Origin: Actinomycetes bacterium
Lineage (GTDB): Bacteria; Actinomycetota; Acidimicrobiia; Acidimicrobiales; JAMCPL01
Length of the DNA: 64,000 bases
Direction of reading: 5' to 3'
Assembly: GCA_021841005.1 (NCBI GenBank)
Contig: JAKBVZ010000036.1
Location: forward strand, 33,933 to 97,932
Position numbers and translations under genes: made by a program. Below the pieces are notes generated by a model. That model worked only from the letters and a program-made list of their open reading frames with translations. It made no database searches and was not told where the DNA came from. Shown one piece after another: positions 5,565-61,701 of the stretch. How positions within the stretch are numbered: the first letter of the stretch is position 1; every line of letters starts with the position of its first letter.

Positions 5565-8411
5565 ATGACCATGCTGTTTGATGGGCTGTCGCACCAATTG
5601 CCTGACATCGATCCGGAAGAGACCATGGAGTGGATGGACTCCTTCGACGCTGTCGTCGATACCAAGGGCCGTGGCCGTGGGCGGTTCCTTCTTATGAAAA
5701 TGCTCGAACGTGCCAGGACAAAGCAAGTGGATTTCCCCGCCACTATATCCACCCCCTACGTCAATACCATAGCGAAAGATCAGGAGCCATGGTTTCCTGG
5801 AGACGAACAAATGGAGAGACGGATAAGGGCTTATATACGCTGGAATGCCGCCGTCATGGTCATAAGGGCGAATACACGCAATCCCGGCATCGGCGGGCAT
5901 CTATCCACTTACGCAAGTTCCGCAACACTGTATGAAGTAGGTTTCAACTATTTCTTCAGGGGAAAGTCGGATGGCGGGTTCGGAGACCAGGTCTTTTTCC
6001 AAGGGCACGCATCACCAGGGATATACGCTAGGGCGTTTGTAGAAGGCCGGCTGAGCGAAGAGCAGATGGACAGCTTCAGGACAGAGGTAGACAACGGAGG
6101 GCTACCAAGCTACCCTCATCCTCGCCTCGCTCCGGACTTCTGGGAGTTCCCCACAGTTTCGATGGGCCTAGGGCCGCTGTTCGCCATATACCAGGCACAT
6201 ATAAACCGCTACCTGCAGAGCCGCGAACTCGTCGATACCTCCAATGCCAGGGTATGGGCGTTTGCCGGTGATGGGGAGATGGACGAGCCTGAAGCAATAG
6301 CAGCGCTGGGAGTAGCGGGCCGGGAACACTTGGACAACCTCATCTTCGTGGTCAATTGCAACCTCCAGCGCCTCGATGGCCCGGTACGGGGAAACGGAAA
6401 GATCATCCAGGAACTCGAAGCGACCTTTCGTGGCGCCGGATGGAATGTAATCAAGGTCATCTGGGGTTCCAAGTGGGACGACCTGCTTGCCAGAGATGTA
6501 GACGGCGTCCTGCTCGACAAGATGAACACCACCCCCGATGGTGATTTCCAAAAATACGCCACCGAATCGGGTGCATACATTCGCGAGCACTTCTTCGGAC
6601 CGGACCCAAGACTGCGCAAGATGGTGGAACATCTTACCGACGAAGAGCTCCAGAACCTTCCTAGAGGAGGCCATGACTACCGCAAACTCTATGCCGCCTA
6701 CAAGCTGGCAACTGAAGAACGGGAGGCGCCTACTGCCATCCTGGCAAAGACGATCAAGGGTTGGATGCTGGGACCAGAGGTGGAGGCACGCAACGCCACC
6801 CATCAGATCAAGAAGATGGGCAGCGCTCAGCTAGTGGCGCTACGAGATCGCCTCAATCTCATAGAGGAAATACCTGACAGCGCCTTGGATGGCGATATCC
6901 CCCCTTACTACCGACCGGAAAAAGGCTCTACCGCTTACGACTATATCATGGCTAGACGTAAGCTGACGGCAGGCCCGGTGCCTCAACGAGTGGTCAGGAA
7001 GCGCACTACCGGTAAACCGGACGCCAAGGTTTTCGATGACCTGCTGGAAGGATCCAACGGGCAAGCCGTCTCCACCACCATGGTATTCGCTAGGTTGTTA
7101 CGCAACATGGCCAGGGATGCCGAAATCGGCAAACTGGTGGTACCTATCGTACCTGACGAAGCACGCACTTTCGGCCTCGAACCACTTATTTCCGAACACA
7201 AGATCTACGCTCCCGAGGGGCAGCTGTACACACCCGTCGACGCAGGTCTGCTGCTGACCTACGCAGAGGCAAAAAACGGCCAGATACTCGAAGAGGGCAT
7301 AACCGAAGCGGGAGCCATGGCTGCTTTTGGTAGCCTAGCGACCGCCTATGCCACCTGGGGTCGGCCCATGATACCTATACTGCTCTTTTACTCGATGTTT
7401 GGTTTCCAGCGCGCAGGAGATATCACGTGGCTGCTCGGCGATATCCGGGCAAGGGGGATACTCGCTGGCTGCACAGCAGGACGTACCACACTTGAAGGCG
7501 AGGGACTCCAGCATGACGATGGGCATTCCCCCCTGCTGGCATCGGTAAATCCCGCCTGCCGCATATATGACCCTGCTTTCTCGTACGAGATAGCGGCAAT
7601 CATGCAATATGCAGTGAAAGAGATCCTCGACCCCGACAGTGAGGATGCCTTTTTCTATCTCACCTTATACAACGAGAATTATCCCATGCAGGCACTACCG
7701 CCTGGGATTGACAGGGATCGCATCCTGGAAGGCACGGTCAAGGGTATGTACCTCTATGCAGAACGCCCAGACGGCGTTAGCCGTGCTACGGACAGGAAAG
7801 ACAGCCAGGACAGCAGGGACAGCAGGGACAGCAGGGACAGCAGGGACAGCGCAACCAGTGGCAACGGCCCAGCCGGCAAGGTGCCCTCATCGCACGAATC
7901 AAACGGACTTTCCGCAACGTTGCTTTTCTCAGGTCCGCTCTTCGGGGAGGTAATGAAAGCCCGAGAATTGCTCGCTTCGGACTGGGGGATAGGTGCCGAC
8001 GTATACTCTGCAACCTCGTACACCACATTGCGCCGGGAAGCTCTATCCACGATGCGCCACAACATGCTGCATCCGACTATTGCTCCCAGGTTGCCATATG
8101 TCACCCAGATGCTCTCCGGCGGTACGGGACCGATTGTAGCCGTAAGTGATTACATCCGGTCGGTTCCAGACCAGATAGCCCGATTCGTTCCTGCCGGACG
8201 GATGTTTATGTCACTCGGCACAGACGGGTTCGGCAGATCGGACACGCGTAGTGCACTGAGACGTTTCTTCGAGACAGATGCGGCACACATAGTCGTTGCC
8301 ACGCTGTACGCGCTCGCTCTCGCCGGGGAGATAGGACCCGAAACGGTTGCTGCTGCGATAAGGCGATACAGTATCGACCCTGAGCTACCCGACCCCTGGG
8401 CACTGAAGTAG
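5565..8411 (+). CDS. aceE: Pyruvate dehydrogenase E1, homodimeric type
   Basis: DIDPEETxEW, GGHLSTYAS, FPTVSMGLGP, GDGEMDEPE TPP motif, NCNLQRLDGPVRGN, GEGLQH, LGTDGFGRSD. Confidence 0.97.
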   Translation: MTMLFDGLSHQLPDIDPEETMEWMDSFDAVVDTKGRGRGRFLLMKMLERARTKQVDFPATISTPYVNTIAKDQEPWFPGDEQMERRIRAYIRWNAAVMVIRANTRNPGIGGHLSTYASSATLYEVGFNYFFRGKSDGGFGDQVFFQGHASPGIYARAFVEGRLSEEQMDSFRTEVDNGGLPSYPHPRLAPDFWEFPTVSMGLGPLFAIYQAHINRYLQSRELVDTSNARVWAFAGDGEMDEPEAIAALGVAGREHLDNLIFVVNCNLQRLDGPVRGNGKIIQELEATFRGAGWNVIKVIWGSKWDDLLARDVDGVLLDKMNTTPDGDFQKYATESGAYIREHFFGPDPRLRKMVEHLTDEELQNLPRGGHDYRKLYAAYKLATEEREAPTAILAKTIKGWMLGPEVEARNATHQIKKMGSAQLVALRDRLNLIEEIPDSALDGDIPPYYRPEKGSTAYDYIMARRKLTAGPVPQRVVRKRTTGKPDAKVFDDLLEGSNGQAVSTTMVFARLLRNMARDAEIGKLVVPIVPDEARTFGLEPLISEHKIYAPEGQLYTPVDAGLLLTYAEAKNGQILEEGITEAGAMAAFGSLATAYATWGRPMIPILLFYSMFGFQRAGDITWLLGDIRARGILAGCTAGRTTLEGEGLQHDDGHSPLLASVNPACRIYDPAFSYEIAAIMQYAVKEILDPDSEDAFFYLTLYNENYPMQALPPGIDRDRILEGTVKGMYLYAERPDGVSRATDRKDSQDSRDSRDSRDSRDSATSGNGPAGKVPSSHESNGLSATLLFSGPLFGEVMKARELLASDWGIGADVYSATSYTTLRREALSTMRHNMLHPTIAPRLPYVTQMLSGGTGPIVAVSDYIRSVPDQIARFVPAGRMFMSLGTDGFGRSDTRSALRRFFETDAAHIVVATLYALALAGEIGPETVAAAIRRYSIDPELPDPWALK
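7791..7850. repeat. 9-bp in-frame repeat (GACAGCAGG) inside aceE
   Basis: Encodes DSQDSRDSRDSRDS within a roughly 45-aa low-complexity insertion. Confidence 0.9.
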
Positions 8412-8509
8412 GCCTGGAACACAAGTGGGGCGGTCGCGATTTATATTACCTCCTATCGCGTCGTAATGGGTGGCTGAAGTAAATCTGGAACAGAGGTGGG
8501 GCGGTCGCG
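8403..8509. repeat. Repeat-insert-repeat unit 1 (36 bp + 35 bp + 36 bp, period 71)
   Basis: 8403-8438 CTGAAGTAGGCCTGGAACACAAGTGGGGCGGTCGCG vs 8474-8509 CTGAAGTAAATCTGGAACAGAGGTGGGGCGGTCGCG (5 mismatches). The first copy spans the aceE stop. Confidence 0.8.
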
Positions 8510-8514
8510 GTCAA

Positions 8515-8814
8515 CGGCACCCGACCCCCATTTCCACCCAGCTCACTCCACCGGAAGCAGCCTACATATTATCGGACTGCGATGCTAATGCTCTGGTGGT
8601 TTCTCGGGAACTAATCACTGTGGCCACCGATGCTTTGGATATCCTGAAGCATGAAGACGCTGCACTCCCTGCCAGGATACTCAAGCTGTCCACCGGTACC
8701 GGGGTTTCCGGTGGATACCCATGTCACACGTCTTGCGATCCCTGCCAGGATACTCAAGCTATCCACCGGTACCGGTTCGCATGCCAGCTGGTTATCAATA
8801 CACACTACATGTAG
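8515..8814 (+). pseudogene. Fragment of an AMP-binding acyl-CoA synthetase
   Basis: TPISTQLTPPEAAYILSDCDANALVVS resembles the PINxxLTxxEVAYILxDS segment of acyl-CoA ligases. It has no proper N- or C-terminus and is frameshifted by unit 2. Confidence 0.6.
8666..8775. repeat. Repeat-insert-repeat unit 2 (37 + 36 + 37, period 73)
   Basis: 8666-8702 and 8739-8775 TCCCTGCCAGGATACTCAAGCT(G/A)TCCACCGGTACCGG, 1 mismatch. Confidence 0.93.
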
Positions 8815-8896: not shown

Positions 8897-9976
8897 GTGC
8901 CTACCAGGTACTATCTGCAACCATCCACAAGACAGTTGCGTAACCGGAGAGTGAGGATGATAGCTGCAACTACCAGCACAGACAGGTCAAACGGATCGGA
9001 CAGGGCAACGCAGTTGCGTAAAACACACCTGACCGGACCTACCGATGACCCGTTCATCAATGCCGTTATACGACGATCCCTAGATCCAGATCCAAAGCTC
9101 AGACGACTGGCTGCATCCAGCCGGCATGCCACCCCATTTATACTGGCGTTCCTTGCCCTTGACGACGATGGCATTACCCGTATGAAAGTGGCCGGCAACG
9201 CTATCACGCCGAGCGTAGTGCTGGAACACCTCTCTCTGGATTCGCTGGACAGCGTGAGGGCCGAAGTGGCCGGCAACCCAAATGTCACCCCTGCCTTACT
9301 GGAAGAGCTTTCTGATGATCAATCATTCCTGGTAAGGGCACGCGTGGCAAGCAACAGGGCTTCAGACGTGAGCGTGCTTGCCTACCTGGCAGACGATGCC
9401 AACTGGAGCGTACGGGAAGCGGTTGCCTCCAACCCCATGACCCTGCAAGAAACACTTGATCAGCTGGCTACGGACGACTCGTCACATGTGCGCCGCGCAG
9501 TAGGAAACAACCCTGCCACATCGCTCAAGTGGCTCATGGCGCTCGCTGACGATCCGGACCGGTCCGTGCGTACAGCCGTATATGGCAACCCGTCCAGTAA
9601 CGATCAAGTGAGGAACAAGGTGGAAGGATACCTTTCAGTACGGGTAGGTATCCATCCTGCTGCAAGTCTGGCAACAGATGCACGTAGGCTCATGAATATG
9701 GCAAGCAACCGCAACTGGGTAATCCGCCAGGGCGTCGCCATGAATCCGGTAGCTCCTAGGCACGCGTTGACACAACTGGCCAAGGACCCCGACTGGAGAG
9801 TAAGACGAGGCGTGGCGGCAAACCATGCCACACCCAGAGACACCCTGATCCTGCTTGCAGACGACAACCATCCTGAGGTATGCCAGGCGGTAGCCGACAA
9901 CTCGGCCGTCCCTCCCGCCGCTCTCACGATTGCCTTGGCCAACTTGGCCAAGGTGCACCGGCGTTACGTTGTATAG
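8897..9976 (+). CDS. Leucine-rich-repeat-variant (LRV)/HEAT-like repeat protein, paralog 1
   Basis: About 24-aa repeats LAxDxxxxVRxxVAxNPxxxxxxL throughout. The start may be the ATG at about 8957. Confidence 0.8.
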   Translation: MPTRYYLQPSTRQLRNRRVRMIAATTSTDRSNGSDRATQLRKTHLTGPTDDPFINAVIRRSLDPDPKLRRLAASSRHATPFILAFLALDDDGITRMKVAGNAITPSVVLEHLSLDSLDSVRAEVAGNPNVTPALLEELSDDQSFLVRARVASNRASDVSVLAYLADDANWSVREAVASNPMTLQETLDQLATDDSSHVRRAVGNNPATSLKWLMALADDPDRSVRTAVYGNPSSNDQVRNKVEGYLSVRVGIHPAASLATDARRLMNMASNRNWVIRQGVAMNPVAPRHALTQLAKDPDWRVRRGVAANHATPRDTLILLADDNHPEVCQAVADNSAVPPAALTIALANLAKVHRRYVV

Positions 9977-10081: not shown

Positions 10082-10185
10082 TGCACACCTGCACACCTGC
10101 ACACCTGCACACCTGCACACCTGCACACCTGCACACCTGCACACCTGCACACCTGCACACCTGCACACCTGCACACCTGCACACC
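10082..10185. repeat. (TGCACACC)13 microsatellite
   Basis: Thirteen perfect 8-bp copies between the two LRV genes. Confidence 0.97.
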
Positions 10186-10283
10186 GCACCAGGTACCCGG
10201 GCCCAGACACGGGCTACACAGACTATATTGCCTCCATGCCCAGGCACTGGTATGCACCTGTGTGGCAGAACATCATGCTATGA

Positions 10284-11393: not shown

Positions 11394-12076
11394 GTGAGCA
11401 ATCACCTTCCCTCGATCAAGCCAGGATTTACCTGTGCGTACCGGCAATGCCTGACATAGAGCACTTCTTGGAAAGCGCCATCAGGGGAGGCGTGGATGCC
11501 GTCCAACTTCGCGAGAAACACCTTGAAGCCCTGGGAATACTCGGGTATGCCAGGAAAGCTTTACGTGTCTGTCGCGCCATGGGGATACCCTTCATTGTAA
11601 ACGATAGGCCTGACCTGGCCTTGGAGGTAGAAGCTGACGGAGTCCATGTAGGTCAAGATGATGCTCCCCCATCGCTTGCCCGCAAGATACTCGGTTCCCT
11701 GGCAGTAGTAGGCCGTTCCACCCACGCTAAGGCGGAACTGGATTCAAGTATCACCGAACCGGTGGATTATGTCTCTGCGGGGCCTGTCGTTTCCACTCCC
11801 ACCAAGCCGGGCCGTGAGGGCACCGGCATGGAATACGTGAAGTACGCTGTGACCAATTCGCCCAAACCAGTCTTCGTCACAGGAGGTGTCACCCCAGAGA
11901 CTGTTCCCCAGCTCGCCGCCGTAGGTGTGACGCATTACGTAGTGGTCAGGTATCTAACCGAGTCCAATGATCCATACCGCGCAGCTCGGGCGCTAAAAGA
12001 AGCTGCAGCTAGAGCATTTGACCGCTGCAAGGTTTCCGGCACGGCTAACGCTTTGCGCGGGCGGCATTGCCAATGA
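11390..12076 (+). CDS. thiE: Thiamine-phosphate synthase
   Basis: VQLREK, FIVNDRPDLA, DGVHVGQDD, GRSTH, TPTKPG. Confidence 0.95.
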   Translation: MSEQSPSLDQARIYLCVPAMPDIEHFLESAIRGGVDAVQLREKHLEALGILGYARKALRVCRAMGIPFIVNDRPDLALEVEADGVHVGQDDAPPSLARKILGSLAVVGRSTHAKAELDSSITEPVDYVSAGPVVSTPTKPGREGTGMEYVKYAVTNSPKPVFVTGGVTPETVPQLAAVGVTHYVVVRYLTESNDPYRAARALKEAAARAFDRCKVSGTANALRGRHCQ

Positions 12077-12079
12077 CAG

Positions 12080-12862
12080 ATGCACGGCCAAGAAGGTACC
12101 TCTCACCGTACCTCATCCTCACCTCGGGCGCGGTATGGTGGAACGGCCGTGCCTGAACGGTCGCGAAGGAACCTCCTGAGGGACGATGTGTACAGGAGAC
12201 CGCTCGAAACCGCACTCGACAGGCTGGGCGTGTCAGACGGCTGGAAGTGCGTGGATGCCGGCGCCGGCGGTGGCGATGTTTCAGTTGCACTGGCGGAAAT
12301 TGTCGGAGCCACAGGACGTATATACTCTGTCGACATTGATCCCGTAGCAAGGGACGAGGTGGCCTCGAGAGCAGCCGCATACAGCCAGGTAATTGCAATC
12401 ACCCAGGCAGCAGAAGACCTATTGCTACCGGAACCAGTGGACCTGGCATTCTGCCGCTTTCTCCTAATGCATGTCCATGACCCTCTGGTGGTCGTGTGCA
12501 GGATGGCGACTGCCGTCAGGCCAGGAGGGTTTGTAGTCGCCCAGGAGCCGGTGACATCGGCCGGCAGGATAGGTGGACTGCCCTTCTCCATGGAAGGAGC
12601 GTTGCATCCCGACGCCGGTGATGTCCTGCCTTCCCTAATACGCCAAGCAGGTCTTGAACTGGTCGACTGCTGGGCGGAATCTCCCGCATGGGCCGGTGAG
12701 GGACCAGTTGCCCGCTATCTCGAGCGCTTGACTGGGGTAGATCCCTGCGACAATCCAGTCATACTCCCCCCCCTAGTGACGGCGGTAGGCCGTGTACCGG
12801 AGAATCGTCCGGTAGACAGCCAGAACAGGATACCGGTAGCTGACCGTCCGACCGATTGGTGA
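12080..12862 (+). CDS. Class I SAM-dependent methyltransferase
   Basis: VDAGAGGG motif I, VDID, DLAFCRFLLMH, VRPGG. Confidence 0.88.
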   Translation: MHGQEGTSHRTSSSPRARYGGTAVPERSRRNLLRDDVYRRPLETALDRLGVSDGWKCVDAGAGGGDVSVALAEIVGATGRIYSVDIDPVARDEVASRAAAYSQVIAITQAAEDLLLPEPVDLAFCRFLLMHVHDPLVVVCRMATAVRPGGFVVAQEPVTSAGRIGGLPFSMEGALHPDAGDVLPSLIRQAGLELVDCWAESPAWAGEGPVARYLERLTGVDPCDNPVILPPLVTAVGRVPENRPVDSQNRIPVADRPTDW

Positions 12863-12935
12863 GCAACCTCTTTGCTAGAACCCTGACTCCGGTGAACCTG
12901 GATACCGGTAGCTGACCGTCCGACCGATTGGCGAG
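12828..12935. repeat. Repeat-insert-repeat unit 3 (36 + 36 + 36, period 72)
   Basis: 12828-12863 and 12900-12935 GGATACCGGTAGCTGACCGTCCGACCGATTGG(T/C)GAG. The first copy contains the methyltransferase stop. Confidence 0.93.
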
Positions 12936-13043
12936 AGTGCCTCAACTACGAGAGCAAGTACGAGATGGAGGAGAGAACAGCAGGATTGATAGAATGACTC
13001 GAACGCAAGTCACAAGTCACAAGTCACAAAAGGAGGATATGCT

Positions 13044-14729: not shown

Positions 14730-14748
14730 AACGGCCTGCAAATTGGCA

Positions 14749-14857
14749 CGACATCTCAATCCTCAGCTAGATCCTCGGTAGTAACCTGATGCCCCGTCAA
14801 AGTATGGCGTCGATAGATATCGACATCTCAACCCTCAGCTGGATCCTCGGTAGTAAC
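14749..14857. repeat. Repeat-insert-repeat unit 4 (37 + 35 + 37, period 72)
   Basis: 14749-14785 and 14821-14857 CGACATCTCAA(T/C)CCTCAGCT(A/G)GATCCTCGGTAGTAAC. The second copy contains the lgt stop. Confidence 0.93.
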
Positions 14858-15805
14858 GGGTTGACCCCCGGTACGAGCATCCGTTGAACCGTTCCTCACT
14901 CCGTTGTCCCCGTCCAGGTCGCTGCTTTCCATAACCTGACTGCTAAAGCTGTCTCCGTTGTCCCCGTCCAGGCTTGGACTGACACTGTCCACCGTTGCAC
15001 CACTGGCACCAGCCATGATAAATGCCCTTTCAGCCAACGGCAATGGGTGACTCTCTCGATGAGCAAGAAGCCAAACCGACCAGCCAAGTCCAACCGCAAA
15101 CAGACCCAGCCCTGCCAGCTGCACCAGAACCGCTCCCAAGTGTCCCGGATATGCAAGCCATAGGTGCTCCTCGAAAAATCTGCCCAACCCCCACATACCA
15201 ACCGTAGAAGAAGCCACAAACCCGGCAGGGCGATTGGCCATCCTCTTCTCTATCATAATTACGGTAAAAAATATCCCGAACGAGATCATCGCCTGGAAAA
15301 TTGGAACCGGCAGTCGCTTGCCGACTTGATCAGCGTAGTACATGCCGAACCACTGATGAGTAGGGTGACCACCGCCTGCAACCATGAGCTGTGGTCCGAG
15401 GAGCCTTCCTACTCCCCATGCCGCTATGAGCACCGGGGCAACCAAGTCTGCAAGGTTAGCCAGGGACAGATCAGGGCAGCGCTTGCGAGCAATGATAAAT
15501 CCCGTAGGTATACCTGCAATCAAGCCCCCAAACGAGGAGAGACCCCCATGCCAGACCTGAACAATCTGCGCTGGATCAGCAGTGTAGAAAGACAGATTGG
15601 CAAGAACATGCATTACGCGAGCACCAATTATTGCTGCCACGATCACCCAGACAAACATCCCGGTAACCCATGCCCACGGATACCCTCTCTGCTTGAGTCT
15701 ACGCTCGAAATATCTGTACGCGAACCAGAACGTGATCGCCAGTCCTATGCCGTAGGTATGGACAACCAATGGACCTATATGAAACTGAACCGGTATTGGC
15801 TTCAT
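14828..15805 (-). CDS. lgt: Prolipoprotein diacylglyceryl transferase
   Basis: Start reassigned to MKPIPVQFHIGPLVVHTYG. IIGARVMHV, WHGGLSSFGG and GRL motifs with multiple TM helices. The longer ORF overlaps the divergent gene. Confidence 0.85.
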   Translation of the reverse strand: MKPIPVQFHIGPLVVHTYGIGLAITFWFAYRYFERRLKQRGYPWAWVTGMFVWVIVAAIIGARVMHVLANLSFYTADPAQIVQVWHGGLSSFGGLIAGIPTGFIIARKRCPDLSLANLADLVAPVLIAAWGVGRLLGPQLMVAGGGHPTHQWFGMYYADQVGKRLPVPIFQAMISFGIFFTVIMIEKRMANRPAGFVASSTVGMWGLGRFFEEHLWLAYPGHLGAVLVQLAGLGLFAVGLGWSVWLLAHRESHPLPLAERAFIMAGASGATVDSVSPSLDGDNGDSFSSQVMESSDLDGDNGVRNGSTDARTGGQPVTTEDPAEG

Positions 15806-15932
15806 CCACAGCCTCCCGCCATGCATGTCCGCTCGTTGTATATCACTGCTTGCACTATAGCACCGGGCTACGGATACCAGTAGGCAGATCTCCGGTCGAG
15901 TTGCCAGGCGATCGGCAACGACGCTATTATCG

Positions 15933-16880
15933 ATGACCATGTCCGAAAGAAGTAGAGATTTACCGCGTCGTTCCTGCCTGTCGGTTCCGGGATCCAACGA
16001 AAGGTTCCTCCAGAAGGGCCCTACTGTACCTGCTGATATGACCTTTTTAGATCTCGAGGATTCGGTAGCACCACTGGAGAAGGAAGCGGCCCGAGCAAAA
16101 GTGGCTGATGCCATCAAGAGTCTCCCATGGGACGACAGGGTGCTGTGCGTACGCGTCAATGCATGGGACACCCGTTGGACTTACGGCGATGTCATAGAGG
16201 TGGTATCCAACGCCGGCCAGAGATTGGACGAGATCATGTTGCCCAAAGTGCAGAGTGCAGCAGAAGTGGTGGCGCTGGATCTCCTTCTCACCCAGATAGA
16301 AGCCAACTGCGGATTACCGTACGGACACATAGGAATAGAAGCGCAGATCGAGACCACAAGAGGCCTCATCAATGTCGAAGAGATATGCGCTGCATCTCCA
16401 AGGCTGGAAACCATCATCTTCGGTCCCGCCGACTTCGCAGCTTCGATGGAGATGCCAGTTCTTACGGGAGGAGTCGCCATAGAAGAGTACCCTGGCGACC
16501 ACTTCCACTATGTCTTCTCCAAGATACTCATGGCAGGTCGCGCCAATGGCCTTCAGGTCATCGACGGACCTTACTTGAAAATAAGGGACTTGGACGGCCT
16601 AAGGGAGTTCTCACAACGCACCAGAGTCCTTGGATATGACGGTAAATGGGCGCTGAACCCGGATCAGGTAACCGTACTCAATGAGGTGTACTCGCCCACC
16701 CAGGAACAGTTCGATCGCGCTCACGATATTCTCGACGCATACCGCCAAGCCACAGAGAGCGAGCGCAAGGGCGCAGTGATGTTCGGCGAGGAGATGATCG
16801 ACGAGGCAAGCAGGAAGATGGCACTGAAGTTTGTCAAGCGCGGGGAACGAGCCGGCTTCAAGCGGAGTGTTGCTGGCTGA
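15933..16880 (+). CDS. CitE/malyl-CoA lyase family (HpcH/HpaI aldolase/citrate lyase)
   Basis: RRSCLSVPG, LDLEDSV, VRVN, MLPKV, QIET, FGPADF, GYDGKWA, EMIDEA. Confidence 0.92.
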   Translation: MTMSERSRDLPRRSCLSVPGSNERFLQKGPTVPADMTFLDLEDSVAPLEKEAARAKVADAIKSLPWDDRVLCVRVNAWDTRWTYGDVIEVVSNAGQRLDEIMLPKVQSAAEVVALDLLLTQIEANCGLPYGHIGIEAQIETTRGLINVEEICAASPRLETIIFGPADFAASMEMPVLTGGVAIEEYPGDHFHYVFSKILMAGRANGLQVIDGPYLKIRDLDGLREFSQRTRVLGYDGKWALNPDQVTVLNEVYSPTQEQFDRAHDILDAYRQATESERKGAVMFGEEMIDEASRKMALKFVKRGERAGFKRSVAG

Positions 16881-16903
16881 GTGCCAACTGAACCGCCCTG
16901 GCT

Positions 16904-17852: not shown

Positions 17853-17958
17853 GGACATCACAGAGTGGGGGTGGAGGGATTCGAACAATACACGGGCTGC
17901 GGCATAGTGGCCGCAGCGGACATTGGACATCACAGAGTGGGGGTGGAGGGATTCGAAC
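17853..17958. repeat. Repeat-insert-repeat unit 5 (34 + 38 + 34, period 72), duplicating the tRNA-Leu 3' end
   Basis: 17853-17886 is identical to 17925-17958: GGACATCACAGAGTGGGGGTGGAGGGATTCGAAC. The insert holds the hairpin GCTGCGGC-N6-GCCGCAGC. Confidence 0.93.
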
Positions 17959-18011
17959 CCTCACTGGAGGCGGTTTAAGCGCCTTGCCTCTGCCGGTTGG
18001 GCTACACCCCC
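17938..18011 (-). tRNA. tRNA-Leu(TAA), short variable region, CCA not encoded
   Basis: Acceptor stem GGGGGTG/CACCCCC, anticodon arm AGGCG-CTTAAAC-CGCCT, T arm GAGGG-TTCGAAT-CCCTC. Confidence 0.92.
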
Positions 18012-36925: not shown

Positions 36926-39570
36926 TCTGACTTTGAACGGTATGATCGTATGCCGATAATAGCAAGTGCCACAATGACAATGATGGCCAGGATGGCGGCG
37001 ATAATGCCTGCCGTGAAAGCAGTTGGCCAGTAGGTAAGATCTACAGTGTCCTTTCCCGCCGGCAGGGGGATGGCCAACATGGTTCCCGCAGCTCTTTCCA
37101 CAGGTACCGTGTGGCCATTGACGCTGGCATGCCAGCCTGGGACGTCTGTGATGCGAGCGAGAAGTTCTGACCGCCTGCTGGAAGCCGCCATGACAACCAG
37201 GTGATTGTCACTTGTCCACTTCCATGATGTCACCTTGCCATAGATGGTGGAATCCTGCTCTGCGTTATGGACAACGTCATTCAGGTCAGGCTCTACAAGC
37301 GTGAAGCGATGCGCGCCAGGCACCTCATAGAGGGTGAAACCTGGTTCGGCAAGGACACAGTAGGACCCAGACGGAGCCTCCGTCTTTCCCTGGCTGCCTC
37401 GGACGGTAAGGAGGTACTTGACTCCGTAGAGTCGGGCAAGTGCGGCATTGGGAAATGAGGGCATGAAGTTGCCTCCTGTTGGCAACGGGACTGGGGTCTG
37501 TGGCGTTGCCGCGGCGTTCCAGGAGTATATGTATTCCGCTTGGAGCATCGGATCATATGCTCCAAAGAGTGAGATTCTGTAAGGCATATTCGTCTCGGGT
37601 GAGAATGCATTGGTTAGACTTGAGCTTATGGACTCGCGCTGGCTAGTATCTCCGGGCGGTGGCGGCCCATCTCCTATGAGGTGATCTCCGACAATGACTT
37701 TGAGCGTCTGCACTGTTGGATCGCTTGGGAAGAAACGATGGCTATAACTGGCTGCTCCGGCTGCAGGCGGCAAGAGCAGCATAATTTGGGAAGCCAGCGC
37801 CGCCAGTACTGCCAGAGACGGTAATAGCAAAGCTAGCCATAGGGTTCTGTTCCGATTGAACAACGTTCTGATACCTGCCCCTATCAATAGTCCTCTGAGC
37901 CGAGCCGGTAGTTGACCAGGCGAATTACGGATATGCAGATCTCCTCGCTCCGGGATCTTTTCCCGGCCATGCGGGAATTGCGTGCTATTCCACTTCACTG
38001 GCTGCTCGCTACTGGTTCGCTCCGGGATCTTTTCCCGGTCATTCGAGGGTTGGAAGATGCGAAATAGGTAAAGCCATCCCAGCAGGAATATTGATCCAAG
38101 CACCAGGGAACCAATCGACCAATCCAGTGACCCTAGGCGGATATGCTTTTCTTGCGAGGTAAGCGTACCCAGTTTCTCCACCCTTACGTACAGCCATATG
38201 ATCAAAGCAGCGATGCTCCCGCATGTAATGGCGAAGATATGACCGTCAGTACGAGCATGCCTGCCAAGCATCCCGTTCTCGCGTACATGTGCATATGCAT
38301 ATGAAGGTGACCGGATCAATCGAGTGAATCCCAGTGCGGCCAGGATGGCAACGAGAAAGTCAAGGGGCATAAGCAGCCTGTTAAAAGATATTACGGTTCC
38401 ATAGGGTAATGTGCTGACGACACGCTGCAGTGGACTTATATGGAATATAACAGCAAATAGCACTAGGGCGCTGGCTAAAGTACCGGCGATTACTGGTCGT
38501 TTGATCATCCGGATAACGGCGAATACGGCAAGTGCCAGAGCAACCGGTCCCACACAAGCGCTCAGTTCGTAGAAGTTGGATCCGTAAAACCACCTGCTGG
38601 AGGTAATCGGGTAACCATAATATCCCGTGGTGATAAAATTAACGGCTATATTTGGAGGTAGCCCGCCGTAATGGTGCATCCGTGCCAAATTTTTGGCCGT
38701 TCCATGCACCAGTTGCATCGCAGGCAGCAGCATAGGTGCGGCAAGCATGCCTCCTAGAAGGCCTCCGATGAGGATCTTCGCCGCTCTGCGTGTAAACATA
38801 AGCCCGTCCAGTTCCCTTCGTACGAGCTTGAATGACATGATCGACCCCCCAAGCAGCAGGACGGTAAAGCCGTCCAGCACGTAGGAGTCCGGATGACCTG
38901 CCCATAGTGCAAACGCCACACTCATAGCAAGACCTATCATGGGGCCGGCGGCCCGTTTACTCCGGTAGGTCAATATGGAGAAGAATACGACCCATCCGAG
39001 CCAGGCATTCACCTGAGCCTGTGGCCATGCTATCCAGTTGACAAAAGATCCTGACAGCTCGAAGGTGACCGCTCCGATCAGGGCTCCAGAGGTGCTGGCG
39101 CCGAGTATCCTGGCTGCAGCATATGCGCCGGTCCCTGCTATGAAAAGTGCCACCAGCACCGATATGCCGTATCCCAGAGATACTGGAAACAGGTAGGAGA
39201 TCAGATGAGGCAAGGAGAACACCGCTGACTGAAAATTGAACATCTGGGGCATGCCGAGGAGGGTGTAGCGATTCCACAATGGCAGGACACCGTTGTGGAT
39301 GGAATGCCAGTTGAATGCCAGCCACGGGCTTTCCTCCCTTACCTGGTCTGAGCTGACCAGATTGTGCACATGGTTGAAGAGGCCATGGGTGACCGGGAAC
39401 AAGGTCAACAGGTCCATCGATCCATATACCGTTCCGTGGTCAAGCGCAGGGTAAAAATAGGCGATACTTACCAGGGCAATGATTCCTATTGCCAACAGAT
39501 CATTCCTGCGCAATCCCTGGCTTGCTCTTTCAAGCACGGACAATCTCGATACAGGTGGGAGTGGTGCCAT
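36922..39570 (-). CDS. YfhO-family membrane glycosyltransferase (GT-C)
   Basis: PLWNRYTLLGMP, LAAPMLLP, many TMs, C-terminal PGWHASVNG...AIPLPAG...YWP and a terminal TM. Confidence 0.85.
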   Translation of the reverse strand: MAPLPPVSRLSVLERASQGLRRNDLLAIGIIALVSIAYFYPALDHGTVYGSMDLLTLFPVTHGLFNHVHNLVSSDQVREESPWLAFNWHSIHNGVLPLWNRYTLLGMPQMFNFQSAVFSLPHLISYLFPVSLGYGISVLVALFIAGTGAYAAARILGASTSGALIGAVTFELSGSFVNWIAWPQAQVNAWLGWVVFFSILTYRSKRAAGPMIGLAMSVAFALWAGHPDSYVLDGFTVLLLGGSIMSFKLVRRELDGLMFTRRAAKILIGGLLGGMLAAPMLLPAMQLVHGTAKNLARMHHYGGLPPNIAVNFITTGYYGYPITSSRWFYGSNFYELSACVGPVALALAVFAVIRMIKRPVIAGTLASALVLFAVIFHISPLQRVVSTLPYGTVISFNRLLMPLDFLVAILAALGFTRLIRSPSYAYAHVRENGMLGRHARTDGHIFAITCGSIAALIIWLYVRVEKLGTLTSQEKHIRLGSLDWSIGSLVLGSIFLLGWLYLFRIFQPSNDREKIPERTSSEQPVKWNSTQFPHGREKIPERGDLHIRNSPGQLPARLRGLLIGAGIRTLFNRNRTLWLALLLPSLAVLAALASQIMLLLPPAAGAASYSHRFFPSDPTVQTLKVIVGDHLIGDGPPPPGDTSQRESISSSLTNAFSPETNMPYRISLFGAYDPMLQAEYIYSWNAAATPQTPVPLPTGGNFMPSFPNAALARLYGVKYLLTVRGSQGKTEAPSGSYCVLAEPGFTLYEVPGAHRFTLVEPDLNDVVHNAEQDSTIYGKVTSWKWTSDNHLVVMAASSRRSELLARITDVPGWHASVNGHTVPVERAAGTMLAIPLPAGKDTVDLTYWPTAFTAGIIAAILAIIVIVALAIIGIRSYRSKSD
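37945..38052. repeat. Repeat-insert-repeat unit 6 (36 + 36 + 36, period 72), in frame inside yfhO
   Basis: 37945-37980 vs 38017-38052: first 22 bp identical (TCGCTCCGGGATCTTTTCCCGG), 5 mismatches overall. The protein shows REKIPER twice, 24 aa apart. Confidence 0.85.
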
Positions 39571-39677
39571 GCGACATTCGACATCTTCTCATGAATGTTT
39601 AACCTTGGATAGCCTTTGCGCTTGGCTCGTCGGGAAAACTATGCGACATTCGACATCTTCTCATGAATGTTTCACCT
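39569..39677. repeat. Repeat-insert-repeat unit 7 (37 + 35 + 37, period 72) at the yfhO start
   Basis: 39569-39605 and 39641-39677 ATGCGACATTCGACATCTTCTCATGAATGTTT(A/C)ACCT. Confidence 0.93.
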
Positions 39678-42762: not shown

Positions 42763-44616
42763 TCAGCCCCCCTCATCGGCTTTACCCGCAGGTGCGGTCT
42801 GAGAAAGGCCGCGAGCACGGCCAGTGCCTGCGCTGGCCCTCGAGTCGGCAGGAGAAAATGAAGGTGGTAAAGTATCTGGCGAGTTGTAGATCTGAGCCTG
42901 ATGCTCGAGATCGCCGGTAAAGCTGTCTATTTCGTGTTGCACGTCAGATGGATCTCTCTGCCACGCTGCTGCCAGGGCGTCGCGCATGGTGTGAGCGGCT
43001 TCGCACGCTGCAGATGCATCCATGAGGGATAGGCGCATCCTTCGAGAAAAGACATCCTCAACCGTGCAGGCCATTTCCTTCTTTACCGCCCAGATGGCTT
43101 CCATCCTCAGATAGGGCGCTTCAGGGGAGAGAGGCTCCAGCGATCCTGGGTAGGAAGAGGCAAGCTCCACAAGGTTGGGCGTTTCGGTACCGTAGCGACT
43201 TACCAGGTGCGCCAGCCGATCAGGCTGGAGGCCCAGTCGATCGGCAGTGCTCGGTGCCAGAAGCTCCCTGAGAGCCAGGGTGTCTCCAGATCCAGCGATT
43301 CGTAGGTGCCGCGTTGCCGATCTGCCGGCGCCTGCAAACGTGGAAAGCGATCTTGCGGCCATGGCTCTGTCGACCGCCTCCTCCGCCATCTTCCTGTATG
43401 TGGTCAGCTTGCCGCCGGTAACCGTTACCAGGCCGCTACTGGACACCTGCACGCTGTGATGCCTGGATAGGTCAGCGGTACGATTTGATCGCTTGCCACC
43501 TGACCCACCAGCGAGCAGGGGGCGTACACCTGCCCAGCTTGCCGTGATGTCCGAGCGGGTGAGGCAGTTGTCGAGATGGGAGTTCACGGCATCGAGCAGG
43601 TAATCGACATCGTCGCTGGAGCACGGCGGATCATCTATCGACCCTTGCCAATCGGTATCGGTGGTACCTATATAGGCATAAGATCCATCGTTCCACGGTA
43701 TGACAAAGATACTCCTGCGGTCGCTTCGGACCGGTAGCACGGCTGCTGATTTTACAGGAAGCCTTGATAGCTTGAATGAGAGATGCACACCCTTGGCGGG
43801 CCTGATGGTCCTGCCGTGGCCTCCTGTGTCCATGGCTCGTACGCTGTCCACCCAGGCGCCAGTGGCGTTCACGACCACATTTGCCCGTATCTCGAAGTCG
43901 GTGCCGGGCTCCTGCGAATTGCTGTAGGGTAAGCGTGAACCAGCGGAAACTGCACGGACGAACCCAGCGCTGTCATGCAGCAACCCGGTCGCTTCTACGT
44001 AGTTGGCACACACCCCGCCATAGTGTCGTGCAGCTGTTGTCAGGATGGCAAGAGTGAGGCGTGCATCGTCTCCGCTTGCATCGTAGTACATGAACCCGCT
44101 CTCAACGCGGTCCTTGCCGAGAGCGGGCAGCAGATCTAACACATCACCTTGCGATAAGCGCGAGTGGAGTTTCCCTATGCGCATGCCGCCCGTGAGGTCG
44201 TACATCCATAATGCAGCGGAGATGGCTGCAGTTGTGGATAGCGTTACCCCAGGACGTTTCGAGGAGAAAATAGGGATGACGAAAGGAAGCGGTTTCACAA
44301 GGTGCGGCGCGTTGTCGAGGAGGCGCTGGCGCTCGTGCAGGGCTTCATACACGAGAGTGAAGTCACCATGCTGGAGGTAGCGAAGGCCGCCATGTACGAG
44401 CTTGGACGACCTGGATGACGTGCCTGAAGCGAAGTCATTGCGTTCGATAAGAGCGACCTTCAAGCCTCTTGCTGCGGCATCCAGCGCGGTCCCAGCCCCG
44501 GTGATACCTCCTCCAATCACCAGCAGGTCGAATGTTTCGCTTTGCAACCTTTGCAAGGCCGTGTTCCGGTCCAACGCATCGTCGGTAGCTGGTCGAGCAC
44601 GGTACATACGGGTCAC
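42763..44616 (-). CDS. glpD: FAD-dependent glycerol-3-phosphate dehydrogenase
   Basis: IGGGITGAG, DFASGTSSRSSKLVHGGLRYL, DDARL, GTTD, AGVRPL, GGKLTTYR. Confidence 0.95.
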   Translation of the reverse strand: MTRMYRARPATDDALDRNTALQRLQSETFDLLVIGGGITGAGTALDAAARGLKVALIERNDFASGTSSRSSKLVHGGLRYLQHGDFTLVYEALHERQRLLDNAPHLVKPLPFVIPIFSSKRPGVTLSTTAAISAALWMYDLTGGMRIGKLHSRLSQGDVLDLLPALGKDRVESGFMYYDASGDDARLTLAILTTAARHYGGVCANYVEATGLLHDSAGFVRAVSAGSRLPYSNSQEPGTDFEIRANVVVNATGAWVDSVRAMDTGGHGRTIRPAKGVHLSFKLSRLPVKSAAVLPVRSDRRSIFVIPWNDGSYAYIGTTDTDWQGSIDDPPCSSDDVDYLLDAVNSHLDNCLTRSDITASWAGVRPLLAGGSGGKRSNRTADLSRHHSVQVSSSGLVTVTGGKLTTYRKMAEEAVDRAMAARSLSTFAGAGRSATRHLRIAGSGDTLALRELLAPSTADRLGLQPDRLAHLVSRYGTETPNLVELASSYPGSLEPLSPEAPYLRMEAIWAVKKEMACTVEDVFSRRMRLSLMDASAACEAAHTMRDALAAAWQRDPSDVQHEIDSFTGDLEHQAQIYNSPDTLPPSFSPADSRASAGTGRARGLSQTAPAGKADEGG

Positions 44617-44773
44617 TGTCTTGCGGCTTCCGGCCTTACCTGCACATACCCCTGCAGGGCTGGTCGAGCACGGTACATACGGGTCACTGTCTTGCGGCTT
44701 CCGGCCTTACCTGCACATACCCCTGCAGGGCTGGTCGAGCACGGTACATACGGGTCACTGTCTTGCGGCTTCC
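44588..44773. repeat. Repeat-insert-repeat unit 8, expanded (44 bp x3 with an identical 27-bp insert x2, period 71) at the glpD start
   Basis: GCTGGTCGAGCACGGTACATACGGGTCACTGTCTTGCGGCTTCC at 44588, 44659 and 44730, all perfect. Confidence 0.95.
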
Positions 44774-49739: not shown

Positions 49740-50863
49740 GTAGCGCCACCGCCGCAGTTGCTACAACCTCAAGTACCAGTACAAGCAGTACCACGGGCTA
49801 TTTTCCTGTTTCTCCTTACCGCATAGTGGACACTCGATGTGCATAGGTTGCGGTAATCCCGAACCCATCATTTTGCTCAAGTGAGAAGTCTCTAGGTCAT
49901 AGCTTGGGTTTTGCACCTCTTACGGCAAGCGGGCCGGGATGGTCATGGCCGGTTACTGTGGACAACGTCCAACTGCCGAGTGGCCCCTCTCTCCAGTCTG
50001 TCTCCTGTCCAACGTCTTCTTTCGATACAGGTCATGCCTCACCTGCCCCCAGGTCAGGTCCTCTCCAGTCTGTCTCCCGTCCAACGCCTTCTTTCTGTAT
50101 GGCGGTAGACGGTAACGGCAACGCACTTAGCTATACTTCCACGTTCGCGCACCGGACAATCACCGCTCAGGTGGGTAACACTGGCGGGCCGTATCATGTT
50201 ACTGGGGTAGTCATGGACGTAACCGTAACCGGCGCAACCTCCGGAGGTTATCTGAGCGCATACCCAGCAGGGACAAAAGTGCCCATGGTTTCGAACTTGA
50301 ACTTTACATCGGGCGCAATCGTGGCGAACCGCATCATGGTCCCTCTTTCCTCAGCCAAGCTGTCAATTCACAACGGCTCCTCATCTACAGTAGATATCAT
50401 GCTGGATATAAACGGCATCTACACCACCAGCGTCACCGGAGCACTGTTTACCCCAAAGACTACCCCGGCACGCATATTGGATACCCGCTGTGCTGTCTCT
50501 CCGGCACCAGCGTTTTGCTCGACGGAGAACCTGCCAAGTCAGAATGCCGCCGTTGGAGCTGTCGGCCCTGATAGCTCGATTACATTCGATGTTGGGGGTA
50601 TCGCGGGCATACCCCTGAGCGCTACTGCAGTCGTTGCAAATCTGACCGCAGTCGCTCCCGTCGCTGGAGGTTATCTCACGCTTTATCCCGCGGGTGAGGC
50701 CCAGCCTCTAATATCCGATGTCAACTTTCATGCCGGCAGCATTGCAATACCGAACCTCGTAGTCGCAAAACTCGGATCTGGCGGGAAGGTCACGATTTAC
50801 AACGGCTCCCCTGGTACGGTCGAGGTGGTTCTGGACGTATTTGGATGGTACAGCACTTCTTAG
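49740..50863 (+). pseudogene. Degraded secreted/surface protein with actinobacterial PxRILDTR / NLTAV...GYLTLYP repeats
   Basis: An upstream fragment (GYFPVSPYRIVDTRCA*) is disconnected from ORF 49904-50863, which carries SVSCPT..FCMAVD and two C-terminal modules. Flanked by IS remnants. Confidence 0.65.
49989..50095. repeat. Repeat-insert-repeat unit 9 (35 + 37 + 35, period 72), in frame
   Basis: 49989-50023 and 50061-50095 CTCTCCAGTCTGTCTCC(T/C)GTCCAACG(T/C)CTTCTTTC. Confidence 0.92.
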
Positions 50864-50869
50864 TCCAAC

Positions 50870-61486: not shown

Positions 61487-61587
61487 GCTACTGGCACCTA
61501 CAATGCGACTGGCACCTACAATGCAACTGGCAGACCTGCTCCCACTCCATGATAATCATAGCCCTCTCTTCCACGAGTTACAGTATA

Positions 61588-61701
61588 AGCCATGCCGGAC
61601 CCGAATTGTTAGCGTAATTTCACCTGTTGTCGAGCCAGGTCCCCACCGAGTCCATCTTGAGCCATGCCGGACCCGAATTGTCAGCGTAATTTCACCTGTT
61701 G
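61588..61701. repeat. Repeat-insert-repeat unit 10 (42 + 30 + 42, period 72)
   Basis: 61588-61629 and 61660-61701 AGCCATGCCGGACCCGAATTGT(T/C)AGCGTAATTTCACCTGTTG; extends to 46 bp with one more mismatch. Confidence 0.92.

Follow-up and report, generated by a model that had tools for sequence, protein, structure and literature searches.

Dispersed 72-bp target-insert-target units in a bacterial genome resemble spacer integration away from CRISPR arrays

Introduction

Integration of spacers outside CRISPR arrays has been described in E. coli, where, as other papers relate of the work of Nivala, Shipman and Church (2018), rare events arose with overproduced Cas1-Cas2 and supplied oligonucleotides; new array-like loci are said to originate from such off-target integration, and circumstantial evidence is mentioned for two further species. 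For type I-G systems, PMC10504553 describes prespacers being trimmed irrespective of sequence by the Cas1 domain of Cas4/1, the optimal prespacers consisting of a 22-23 bp duplex with overhangs of 5-7 nt, about 32-37 nt in total. In the openly searchable literature, the only precedents found for dispersed integration were the overexpression study in E. coli and reports of off-target events in vitro. Until now, off-target integration has counted as a laboratory side reaction that happens rarely, and as a cost that CRISPR adaptation might hypothetically carry. Casposons are multi-kilobase elements, bounded by terminal inverted repeats and encoding a casposase and a polymerase of their own, and they generate a duplication of about 14-15 bp.

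The DNA analysed here is a window of 64 kb from G000, a metagenome-assembled genome of 2.45 Mb in 36 contigs with N gaps. The earlier note on this window had described ten loci at which a direct repeat flanks an insert at a nearly constant period, and had proposed that a promiscuous Cas1-Cas2, or another integrase, writes single-spacer units across the chromosome.

Results

Ten units within the window

A direct-repeat search of the window recovered all ten of these units in their places, with repeats of 34-47 nt and a period of 71-73. One neighbouring tRNA gene is listed with them.

Unit 1, 8403..8509, no strand: target copies 8403-8438 and 8474-8509 (31/36 identical, 86%; period 71), insert 8439-8473 (35 nt)
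Unit 2, 8661..8775, no strand: target copies 8661/8666-8702 and 8734/8739-8775 (42 nt at 93% identity; period 73), insert about 31-36 nt
Unit 3, 12828..12935, no strand: target copies 12828-12863 and 12900-12935 (36 nt, 97% identical; period 72), insert 12864-12899 (36 nt)
Unit 4, 14749..14867, no strand: target copies 14749-14785 and 14821-14857 (47 nt at 87% with a 37-nt core, weaker likeness extending to 14795/14867; period 72), insert 14786-14820 (35 nt)
Unit 5, 17853..17958, no strand: target copies 17853-17886 and 17925-17958 (34 nt, 100% identical; period 72), insert 17887-17924 (38 nt), a copy of the R3 palindrome
tRNA-Leu (anticodon TAA), 17937..18011, minus strand: found with ARAGORN and Rfam
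Unit 6, 37945..38052, no strand: target copies 37945-37980 and 38017-38052 (36 nt, 86% identical; period 72), insert 37981-38016 (36 nt)
Unit 7, 39569..39677, no strand: target copies 39569-39605 and 39641-39677 (37 nt, 97% identical; period 72), insert 39606-39640 (35 nt)
Unit 8, 44588..44773, no strand: 71-bp period in 2.6 copies, 100% identical; about 44 nt of target and 27 nt of insert, repeated
Unit 9, 49989..50095, no strand: target copies 49989-50023 and 50061-50095 (35 nt, 94% identical; period 72), insert 50024-50060 (37 nt)
Unit 10, 61588..61705, no strand: target copies 61588-61633 and 61660-61705 (46 nt, 96% identical; period 72), insert 61634-61659 (26 nt as scored)

Direct-repeat families with copies within 150 bp number 19 in the window, and the spacing is 71-73 in 10 of them; the remainder are microsatellites or short-period arrays, one 20-nt pair at a spacing of 54 and two short pairs (21, 24). 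The inserts, of 26-38 nt, code for nothing, and in alignments the identity of the middle segment falls to background in every unit except that at 44588. The earlier description of unique inserts needs correcting at two places: unit 8 also copies its middle, in 2.6 tandem periods, and the insert of unit 5 belongs to the palindromic R3 family of 78 copies. A canonical CRISPR array, in which one repeat recurs at least three times with different spacers beside a leader and usually cas genes, was rejected as the identity of these loci: their repeats are locus-specific and unrelated to each other, as had been claimed, and differ also from R1 and R2, the repeats of the canonical arrays, and the window indeed holds no cas gene.

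The initial count of six units at gene termini and two in-frame was roughly right, the units concerned being 8403, 12828, 14749, 17853, 39569 and 44588 in the first case and 37945 and 49989 in the second. The first copy of unit 1 spans the stop codon of a pyruvate dehydrogenase E1 ORF (5565-8411, plus strand; Pfam), a methyltransferase ORF (12080-12862, plus strand) has its stop codon in that of unit 3, and that of unit 7 spans the start codon of ORF 36922-39570 (minus strand). The second copy of unit 4 reaches into the lgt ORF (14828-16171, minus strand) at its 3' end, whilst that of unit 5 takes in the final 22 nt of the tRNA-Leu, leaving the gene intact with its 3' end duplicated. At unit 8 the overlap is with a glycerol-3-phosphate-dehydrogenase-like ORF (42763-44616, minus strand), at its 5' end. 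Unit 6 forms an in-frame 72-bp insertion in the YfhO-like membrane protein encoded by ORF 36922-39570, and unit 9 lies in-frame within ORF 49904-50863 (plus strand), a gene with internal repeats. Units 2 and 10 are intergenic, the former upstream of ORF 8897-9976.

A genome-wide peak in repeat spacing

Direct repeats throughout G000 were scanned at spacings of 40-119, CRISPR arrays being excluded. Of 181 events, 140 fell at 68-78 bp, including 100 at 71-73 and 54 at exactly 72, with the other 41 scattered across the remaining 69 spacings of the scan; this peak is far beyond chance. It is also present in a 400-kb sample of the congener G004, which contains 12 units, seven of them young, since their target copies are perfect. 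The peak is absent from a 120-kb sample of G002, and two genomes of the same order, G018 and G011, gave no events in 200 kb each; a 280-kb sample of G005 contained three weak events with spacings of 68-72.

Genome-wide unit counts below refer to 141 dispersed units in G000, of which 127 are simple and 14 tandem. Clean dispersed units have a mean duplication of 36.6-37.0 nt and a mean insert of 34.7 nt where this is R3, or 36.1 nt otherwise, and the mean period of units outside genes is 72.1. The modal duplication is 36-37 nt, 43 of the 127 simple units having exactly 36 or 37. The DNA added by the approximately 140 fixed events amounts to roughly 10 kb.

With respect to genes, 34 units lie inside ORFs, 61 at their edges and 46 between them, when about 78-82% of random sites would be expected inside ORFs. 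The period is divisible by three in 26 of the 34 units inside ORFs, as against 40 of the 107 elsewhere. This depletion of gene interiors and excess of in-frame periods show, across the whole genome, a selective filter of the kind previously suggested, which spares harmless events.

Empty sites and the polarity of the events

G004, a relative from the same genus with a 91% complete assembly, was aligned with the window. Single-copy, insert-free sites, which had been proposed as a check, were found there for four of the ten units (12828, 17853, 39569 and 44588). Of the rest, one unit is shared, one is complex and four could not be aligned. The intergenic region of unit 1 is not alignable and that of unit 2 is diverged; the region of unit 4 holds another, different unit of period 72, the orthologue of the gene that contains unit 9 is rearranged, and at the place of unit 10 the duplication is shifted and the insert is another one, the target being single-copy in a G004 paralogue (C27:13626-15708). 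In the reverse direction, G000 is empty at four units specific to G004, with overlaps of 37, 37, 37 and 45 bp; the overlaps at empty sites span 34-45 bp, four being exactly 37. The 22-mer at the end of the tRNA-Leu, present twice in G000, occurs once in G004 and once in each of the outgroups used for this site, G002 and G005. As read from these alignments, the units are shown to be insertions with target duplication. Unit 6 is found at the orthologous position in G004, where it is more diverged, and is on this evidence an old event; hence insertions both predate and postdate a species split.

The same observations bear on whether the units might be artefacts of metagenome assembly or binning, through strain chimeras or mis-joins in the graph, as could be feared for a 36-contig assembly with N gaps. 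The target copies diverge by 0-14%, unit 6 recurs in the independently assembled genome of another species, and the intragenic depletion and in-frame excess are biological signatures. Furthermore, the period matches no usual k-mer size, and Logan contigs of eight runs from two studies contain 0.98-0.99 of the 31-mers sampled from window positions 12000-18500, although some of these runs may be the source sample. We accord an artefact next to no probability.

Sources of the inserts

Unrelated inserts are held by 86 of the 141 units, and the 80 non-R3 inserts that were compared are mutually unrelated, with nothing in common. When these were searched against the genome, as had been suggested, ten matched elsewhere in it, five of them over their full length of 31-37 nt at 100% identity to distant chromosomal segments, and the identity ends at the insert boundaries. 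Within the window, the insert of unit 7 is identical over 35/35 nt to G000:C10:13950-13984, whilst that of unit 4 has 94% identity over 34 nt with G000:C19:52588-52620. One insert shares a 23-nt overlap with a canonical type III-B array spacer, so that unit and array drew on one and the same source DNA. The shared flanking PAM that had been sought was not there: nine chromosomal sources of inserts had no common motif in their flanks, and only one of the nine had a flank of the TTN type, which we take to be the expected type I-G PAM.

The remaining 55 units (about 40%) have as their insert R3, a palindrome of about 31 nt with an 8-bp stem and a 6-nt loop. It is confined to two close species: G000 has 78 copies, mostly outside genes, and G004 has 12. 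The register varies across about 12 nt, such that the insert is a 35-nt window moving across the palindrome; in 23 clean R3 units, between 3 and 15 nt precede the core on the left and between 1 and 12 nt follow it on the right. R3 thus looks like a spacer-sized element amplified by the insertion process. A transposon or MITE with recognised ends was rejected, as the non-R3 inserts share nothing and the boundaries of R3 slide. A REP element with its RAYT was likewise rejected, as no R3 was found in the examined flanks of the Y1_Tnp matches (C16:55045-55407 and C31:72151-72318).

These inserts also bear on the idea that the units arose when about 72 bp were duplicated locally in tandem, or through slippage during replication, the middle subsequently diverging. 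Of the 141 units, 14 are indeed genuine tandem arrays with at least two periods, the one at 44588 included. In the other 127, however, the middle is unrelated to the flank whilst the outer copies are 86-100% identical, and slippage would neither fix the period at 72 nor recruit one palindrome 55 times. As a general cause it is refuted by the inserts copied exactly from distant loci, and we regard it as extremely improbable in that role; it is likely to be a secondary step in the tandem cases, and unit 8 is read as an insertion unit later amplified via slippage or unequal exchange. A different form of growth is seen at C34:48598, where three target copies have two different inserts between them; this is array-like growth.

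Relationship to the resident CRISPR-Cas systems

True arrays are found on contigs C19, C24 and C33 of G000, and both canonical repeats are 36 nt long. Spacers of the type I-G system are 33-39 nt (mean 35.2, n=25) and those of the type III-B system 35-42 nt (mean 38.8, n=58), giving array periods of 71.2 and 74.8; the unit mean of 72.1 falls between the two, which weighs against the attribution to Cas1-Cas2. The comparison of repeat and spacer lengths called for at the outset came out in favour of a likeness, for spacers with the type I-G array. The search for cas1, cas2 and cas4 was also positive elsewhere in the genome: two Cas1 and two Cas2 genes adjoin the arrays. On C19, a type I-G module has a Cas4g/Cas1g fusion with Cas3g, Csb1 and Csb2; on C33, a Cas4-less Cas1-Cas2 lies beside type III-B Cmr1-6/Cas10. 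The contigs bearing these genes themselves contain units. Both Cas1 genes lie within cas loci and the inserts are gene-less and of 26-38 nt, and a casposon was rejected.

The target sites resemble the canonical repeats weakly at most (+1.2 and +2.2 SD) and are not enriched in hairpins, and therefore repeat-like recognition is not evident; neither is any sequence motif across the approximately 140 sites. This weighs upon the suggestion that the units are functional single-spacer mini-CRISPR arrays, or neo-CRISPR loci, yielding guide RNAs for defence or regulation. The repeat-spacer-repeat geometry, the locus with two spacers and the inserts matching the host chromosome, as regulatory self-targeting guides would, are in keeping with it. 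However, the 'repeat' differs at every locus and is unlike the canonical repeats that are processed, so that Cas processing enzymes would have nothing to recognise; many units lie inside ORFs or over stop or start codons, and no leader was seen. Such a function is very improbable.

Discussion

Integrase-type insertion by the resident CRISPR adaptation complex, away from its array, is probably the best explanation of the units, because their dimensions match those of the arrays and two Cas1-Cas2 modules are present. The proposal that an integrase writes single-spacer units across this chromosome is thereby supported, and from the dimensions and the co-occurrence we infer that this is Cas1-Cas2. 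Two staggered nicks at a distance of about 36-37 bp would take up a fragment of about 35-37 bp, and the stretch between the nicks would be duplicated by gap repair to give a target-insert-target structure with a period of about 72. The enzyme would be the adaptation complex acting off its array, the candidates being the type I-G Cas4/Cas1-Cas2 on C19 and, next to the type III-B system on C33, the Cas1-Cas2 that lacks Cas4. Some fragments are copied from the host chromosome and others would stem from foreign DNA; in about 40% of units the fragment is R3 in variable register, the repeated capture of which would have spread it to 78 copies. Selection then purges most intragenic insertions, the survivors being intergenic, at gene termini or in-frame and 24 codons long, and some units were afterwards amplified in tandem.

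The principal competitor is an integrase or transposition system unrelated to Cas proteins and common to G000 and G004, which would make staggered cuts about 36-37 bp apart and insert short fragments. Such a system would naturally carry R3, as a mobile element of the miniature palindromic kind; the unique inserts would then be by-products and the match to CRISPR sizes coincidental. In its favour, G004 has 12 units in 400 kb, young ones among them, yet a Pfam search of its 91%-complete assembly found no Cas1, and neither R1, R2 nor the 20-kb cas-bearing regions of G000 were found in it. Cas islands are, though, often absent from binned assemblies. Against Cas1-Cas2 as the agent, Cas1 homologues are present in G018, yet no units were seen in its 200 kb. 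The absence of a PAM and of repeat-like targets favours the competitor, as does the dominance of R3 in units when no R3 or full-length self match occurs among the 83 canonical array spacers; attribution to Cas1-Cas2 therefore needs such spacers to be lethal within arrays. Nevertheless, we know of no transposase that inserts arbitrary sequences of fixed length, and the unfixed ends of R3 are unlike transposition that recognises ends. The unrelated inserts of 86 units, the one overlapping a canonical spacer, and the equality of dimensions with the resident arrays are also against such a system. The only Y1 transposase genes of G000 have no R3 nearby, and no reverse transcriptase was found. A non-Cas integrase is accordingly unlikely.

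With Cas1-Cas2 as the preferred agent, R3 could be a new type of mobile element, gene-less and end-less, that spreads through preferential capture as a prespacer and integration at sites other than CRISPR arrays, making Cas1-Cas2 a genome-wide 'spacer transposase'. We consider this possible, though somewhat short of probable; it echoes the transposon ancestry that has been proposed for Cas1. We also infer, rather than observe, the reason for the preference for R3. If true, R3 would be a parasite of the memory-writing step of immunity, and the same activity would be a mutator, placing 24-codon in-frame insertions in proteins.

Off-target spacer integration appears here as a sustained natural process that reshapes a genome. 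Should the attribution hold, the units would allow the genomic cost of adaptation, and selection on it, to be measured directly; they would offer a natural system for studying what keeps Cas1-Cas2 on target, one Cas1 being without a Cas4 partner, and would reveal a route for the birth of new arrays. The R3 family would represent a previously undescribed mode of sequence mobility. Builders of DNA recorders would likewise be interested in an integrase that discriminates little between targets.

As a short palindrome in 78 copies lying mostly outside genes, R3 resembles REP/BIME elements and MITEs, but it differs in being flanked by target duplications of 36-37 bp, in its unfixed ends and in not lying beside Y1 transposase genes; to our knowledge, REP elements make no such duplication. 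Casposons are similar in that the chemistry of a Cas1-family integrase yields target-site duplications, whereas the units carry 35 nt of gene-less, arbitrary sequence between duplications of 36-37 bp. Closest is CRISPR adaptation by type I-G Cas4/Cas1-Cas2, a system encoded in G000, in which a ruler-set fragment of about 35 nt, of any sequence, is inserted through staggered integration and gap repair, duplicating a ruler-set target of 36 nt. The units depart from it in having about 140 unrelated chromosomal targets in place of the leader-proximal repeat, no PAM beside their sources, and products outside any array. In this last respect they resemble off-target, or neo-CRISPR, integration in E. 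coli, where spacers insert elsewhere in the genome; relative to that case, the work of Nivala, Shipman and Church (2018) as described in other papers, they differ in comprising about 140 fixed natural events in 2.45 Mb, from before and after a species split, with a footprint of selection and one amplified family of inserts.

Dispersed 72-bp units in the source genome

Direct repeats of 34-47 nt at a spacing of 71-73 were recovered by a repeat search of the window at all ten of the places from which an earlier note, made from sequence alone, had described repeat-insert-repeat units (named here by their starts). The claim that the middle of each unit was not copied along with its flanks holds for nine of them, in which alignments found the outer target copies to be 86-100% identical and the middle at background; it fails for 44588, where a 71-bp period recurs perfectly in tandem for 2.6 copies. 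The window itself is bacterial DNA densely packed with genes, three of them for tRNAs, and was placed on contig C17 of the source genome (36 contigs, 2.45 Mb, 56% GC, 94% complete). The units gain indirect support from Logan contigs, in which eight runs from two studies contain 0.98-0.99 of the words sampled from window positions 12000-18500, some of these runs possibly being the source sample; other runs contain 0.46-0.73 of these words, and runs with small shares were left out of account. The runs with the highest share of window words are labelled mine drainage or tailings.

The predicted genome-wide spacing peak was also found. A scan for direct repeats at all spacings between 40 and 119 bp, after removal of low-complexity repeats and of CRISPR arrays, gave 181 events across the source genome; 140 of them had a spacing of 68-78 bp, including 100 with 71-73 bp, and filtering left 141 dispersed units. 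The duplicated segment is most commonly 36-37 nt long, the insert has a mean of 34.7-36.1 nt in clean units, and the mean period of units outside genes is 72.1. Among samples of related genomes, 12 of 21 events had a spacing of 70-74 in 400 kb of the congener G004, as against none of seven in 120 kb of G002, another congener; three of four events, all of them weak, had a spacing of 68-72 in 280 kb of G005, a member of the same family, and no events at all were detected in 200 kb each of G018 and G011, from the same order.

Many of the events at other spacings were seeded by short-period arrays resembling three perfect or near-perfect ones in the window:

217-309: 18-mer, 5 copies
10082-10189: 8-mer, 13.6 copies
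23875-23988: 16-mer, 7 copies

The window also contains, at 41099-41199, a MITE-like element of around 100 bp with terminal inverted repeats, which is not related to the 72-bp units; five to six more copies are present in the source genome, and many in the congeners G001, G003 and G004.

Insertion polarity in related genomes

G004 is approximately 90% identical to the window and syntenic with it along G004 contig C27. Empty sites of the kind anticipated, having a single target copy and no insert, are found there at 12828, 17853, 39569 and 44588, whilst the surrounding DNA of 8403, 8661, 14749 and 49989 was not alignable. The unit at 37945 is common to both genomes and more diverged, and hence represents an old event. 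The polarity is also found in reverse: where G004 has four units of its own, the source genome has single-copy sites, with overlaps of 37, 37, 37 and 45 bp. The 3' end of the tRNA-Leu gene occurs once in each of G004, G002 and G005 and twice in the source genome, such that its duplication is derived in the latter; for 12828 and 44588, outgroup polarity was precluded by the divergence of the intergenic DNA in G002, G005, G001 and G003.

At two homologous target sites, the two species carry different inserts: C5:50827, compared with G004 contig C10 (L040:16717), and window unit 61588, which in G004 contig C27 has another insert and a shifted duplication. Both were apparently hit separately in each species, or had their insert replaced, although two cases are too few to define a hotspot.

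Placement and age of the units

According to crude ORF calling, the units number 34 inside ORFs, 61 at their edges and 46 between genes; random sites would fall inside ORFs in approximately 78-82% of cases, compared with 34 of 141 here. The period is divisible by three in 26 of the 34 units inside ORFs, against 40 of the 107 elsewhere. Within the window, the reported association with gene termini was broadly confirmed: units lie over the stop codons of two genes (PDH E1 and a methyltransferase), the 3' ends of two others (lgt and tRNA-Leu) and the 5' ends of a further two. The presence of two in-frame units within ORFs was likewise confirmed.

Both target copies are perfect in 80 of 127 simple units, hence the activity is recent as well as old. 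Fourteen units, 44588 among them, consist of at least two tandem periods whose inserts are identical; slippage or unequal exchange at a later stage is the best reading of these. At C34:48598-48780, three target copies, the third of them diverged, surround two different inserts (39 nt and around 33 nt); this is a two-spacer neo-array, produced by two successive hits at one site.

Origin of the inserts

The inserts had been described as unique. This is correct insofar as the 80 non-R3 inserts are otherwise mutually unrelated, but not for 17853, the insert of which is a copy of a palindrome, R3, having an 8-bp stem and a 6-nt loop. Searching the inserts against their own genome, as had been proposed, found matches elsewhere for 10 of the 80 simple non-R3 units. 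Five match distant DNA at 100% over their full 31-37 nt, including that of 39569 (C10:13950-13984), and the insert of 14749 matches C19:52588-52620 at 94%; identity between copied insert and source stops at the insert boundaries. A shared flanking PAM was not found, there being no common motif beside nine chromosomal sources. The insert at C4:15933 overlaps a spacer of the type III-B array by 23 nt, offset, so the same DNA was sampled both at the array and at a stray site. No exact match was found in viral contigs for R3 or for two motifs taken from inserts; R3, singly or as a repeat pair, had none in JGI metagenome contigs.

The R3 palindrome family

R3 is carried by 55 of the 141 dispersed units. 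There are 78 copies with up to two mismatches in the source genome and 12 in G004, but none in the 29 other relatives searched, in agreement with a loop-degenerate search over 13 genomes. Target duplications flank 70 of 94 core matches (up to four mismatches). By arithmetic from these counts, R3 accounts for approximately 40% of events whilst covering roughly 0.1% of the genome. The conserved stretch is only around 31 nt; among 23 clean cases, the commonest insert length is 35 nt, with starts 3-15 nt before the core and ends 1-12 nt after it. Given this sliding register and fixed insert length, R3 appears to be a preferred source sampled at fixed length, without defined ends. Some R3 inserts consist of another R3 locus plus a few of its flanking bases (that at C31:134475 is identical to the window copy apart from a shift of a few bases), which in these small numbers hints at copy-of-copy spread.

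No longer master copy of R3 was found when looked for. A retron or msDNA source was rejected, as the source genome has no RVT_1 match, as was a REP/RAYT origin, there being no R3 in the examined flanks of the Y1 transposase genes; an intact IS200/IS605-type Y1 transposase gene at a contig end (C16:55045-55407) and a broken copy (C31:72151-72318) are both unlinked to R3. Six loci (C36:5651, C25:97575, C28:12747, C14:46533, C15:16868 and C25:66921) share a common target-R3-target unit of around 110 bp altogether. The whole unit, or a short sequence hosting it, has itself been dispersed to these loci; that this family is an IS element was discounted, the dispersed piece being only around 110 bp. 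An assembly gap, represented by a run of N at C14:40259-40459, falls within a tandem target-R3 array, hence arrays of this kind may be incompletely assembled, with copy numbers that are too low.

Resident CRISPR-Cas systems

The source genome has two kinds of true CRISPR array, with repeats, R1 and R2, both 36 nt long.

CRISPR arrays of the source genome
R1 array: C19, 19 repeats; C24, 8 repeats; spacers 33-39 nt, mean 35.2
R2 array: C33, 59 repeats; spacers 35-42 nt, mean 38.8

A search for cas1, cas2 and cas4 revealed two Cas1-Cas2 modules adjoining these arrays. Next to R1 are Cas2, a Cas4g/Cas1g fusion bearing the sole Cas4 domain in the genome, Cas3g, Csb2 and Csb1, constituting a type I-G system; next to R2 are Cas2, a Cas1 without a Cas4 domain, a Csb2 fragment and Cmr1-6/Cas10, of type III-B. 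The closest homologues of the fusion, at 50-68% identity, are in Actinomycetota and two Chloroflexi MAGs; a housekeeping protein likewise hints at Actinomycetota. At C33:7644-9562, the Cas4-less Cas1 is preceded by the fragment, which matches Csb2 over its C-terminal half only; the arrangement resembles a type I-G module that has decayed whilst its adaptation genes survived. The type I-G spacers at C19:545 and 617 overlap type III-B spacers at C33:6703 and 5660 by 20-25 nt, both arrays having drawn on the same invader DNA. None of the canonical spacers has a full-length self match, and R3 is absent from the canonical arrays, which we assume is attributable to lethal self-targeting.

Compared with these arrays, the dispersed units have the dimensions of a resident repeat plus a type I-G-sized spacer. 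Their targets, however, are not repeat-like: in-register likeness to R1 and R2 is +1.2 and +2.2 SD respectively, and position counts around 39 clean targets, with pooled end profiles, reveal no more than a weak preference for G at the start of the duplication (42 of 110 ends). A visual impression of hairpin-rich targets was dismissed, as folding energies did not differ from those of random sites matched for location class (p 0.18-0.90).

Mechanism of insertion

Cas1-Cas2 is the only enzyme known to insert DNA of any sequence at a ruler-set length and to duplicate a target whose length is likewise ruler-set. Taken with published prespacer data and off-target events in E. coli, this makes it probable that the units arose when one of the two resident modules integrated DNA off target. 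Of the two, the type I-G module is favoured by the insert length, whilst the absent PAM would fit the Cas4-less one. Weighing against integration by a resident module, Cas1, R1 and R2 are all missing from the G004 assembly (91% complete), though this genome has young units, and the two cas-bearing 20-kb regions of the source genome were not found in it either; conversely, G018 has Cas1 homologues, yet zero units in the 200 kb sampled. Further points that weaken the attribution are the targets unlike CRISPR repeats, the lack of a PAM and the absence of R3 from the canonical arrays.

According to PMC10504553, the Cas1 domain of a type I-G Cas4/1 trims prespacers without sequence preference, and optimal prespacers comprise a 22-23-bp duplex with 5-7-nt overhangs, a size which fits the 35-37-nt inserts found here. 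Nivala et al. 2018, as cited in other papers, reportedly observed off-target insertion of spacers in the chromosome of E. coli cells overproducing Cas1-Cas2. Literature searches restricted to accessible papers, whose supplements could bear on earlier sightings, found nothing comparable to this genome. The chemistry and laboratory off-target events are already known; what is new is a natural genome with around 140 such scars, in which selection has clearly filtered the insertions, the activity extends across a speciation and a palindromic cargo has been amplified.
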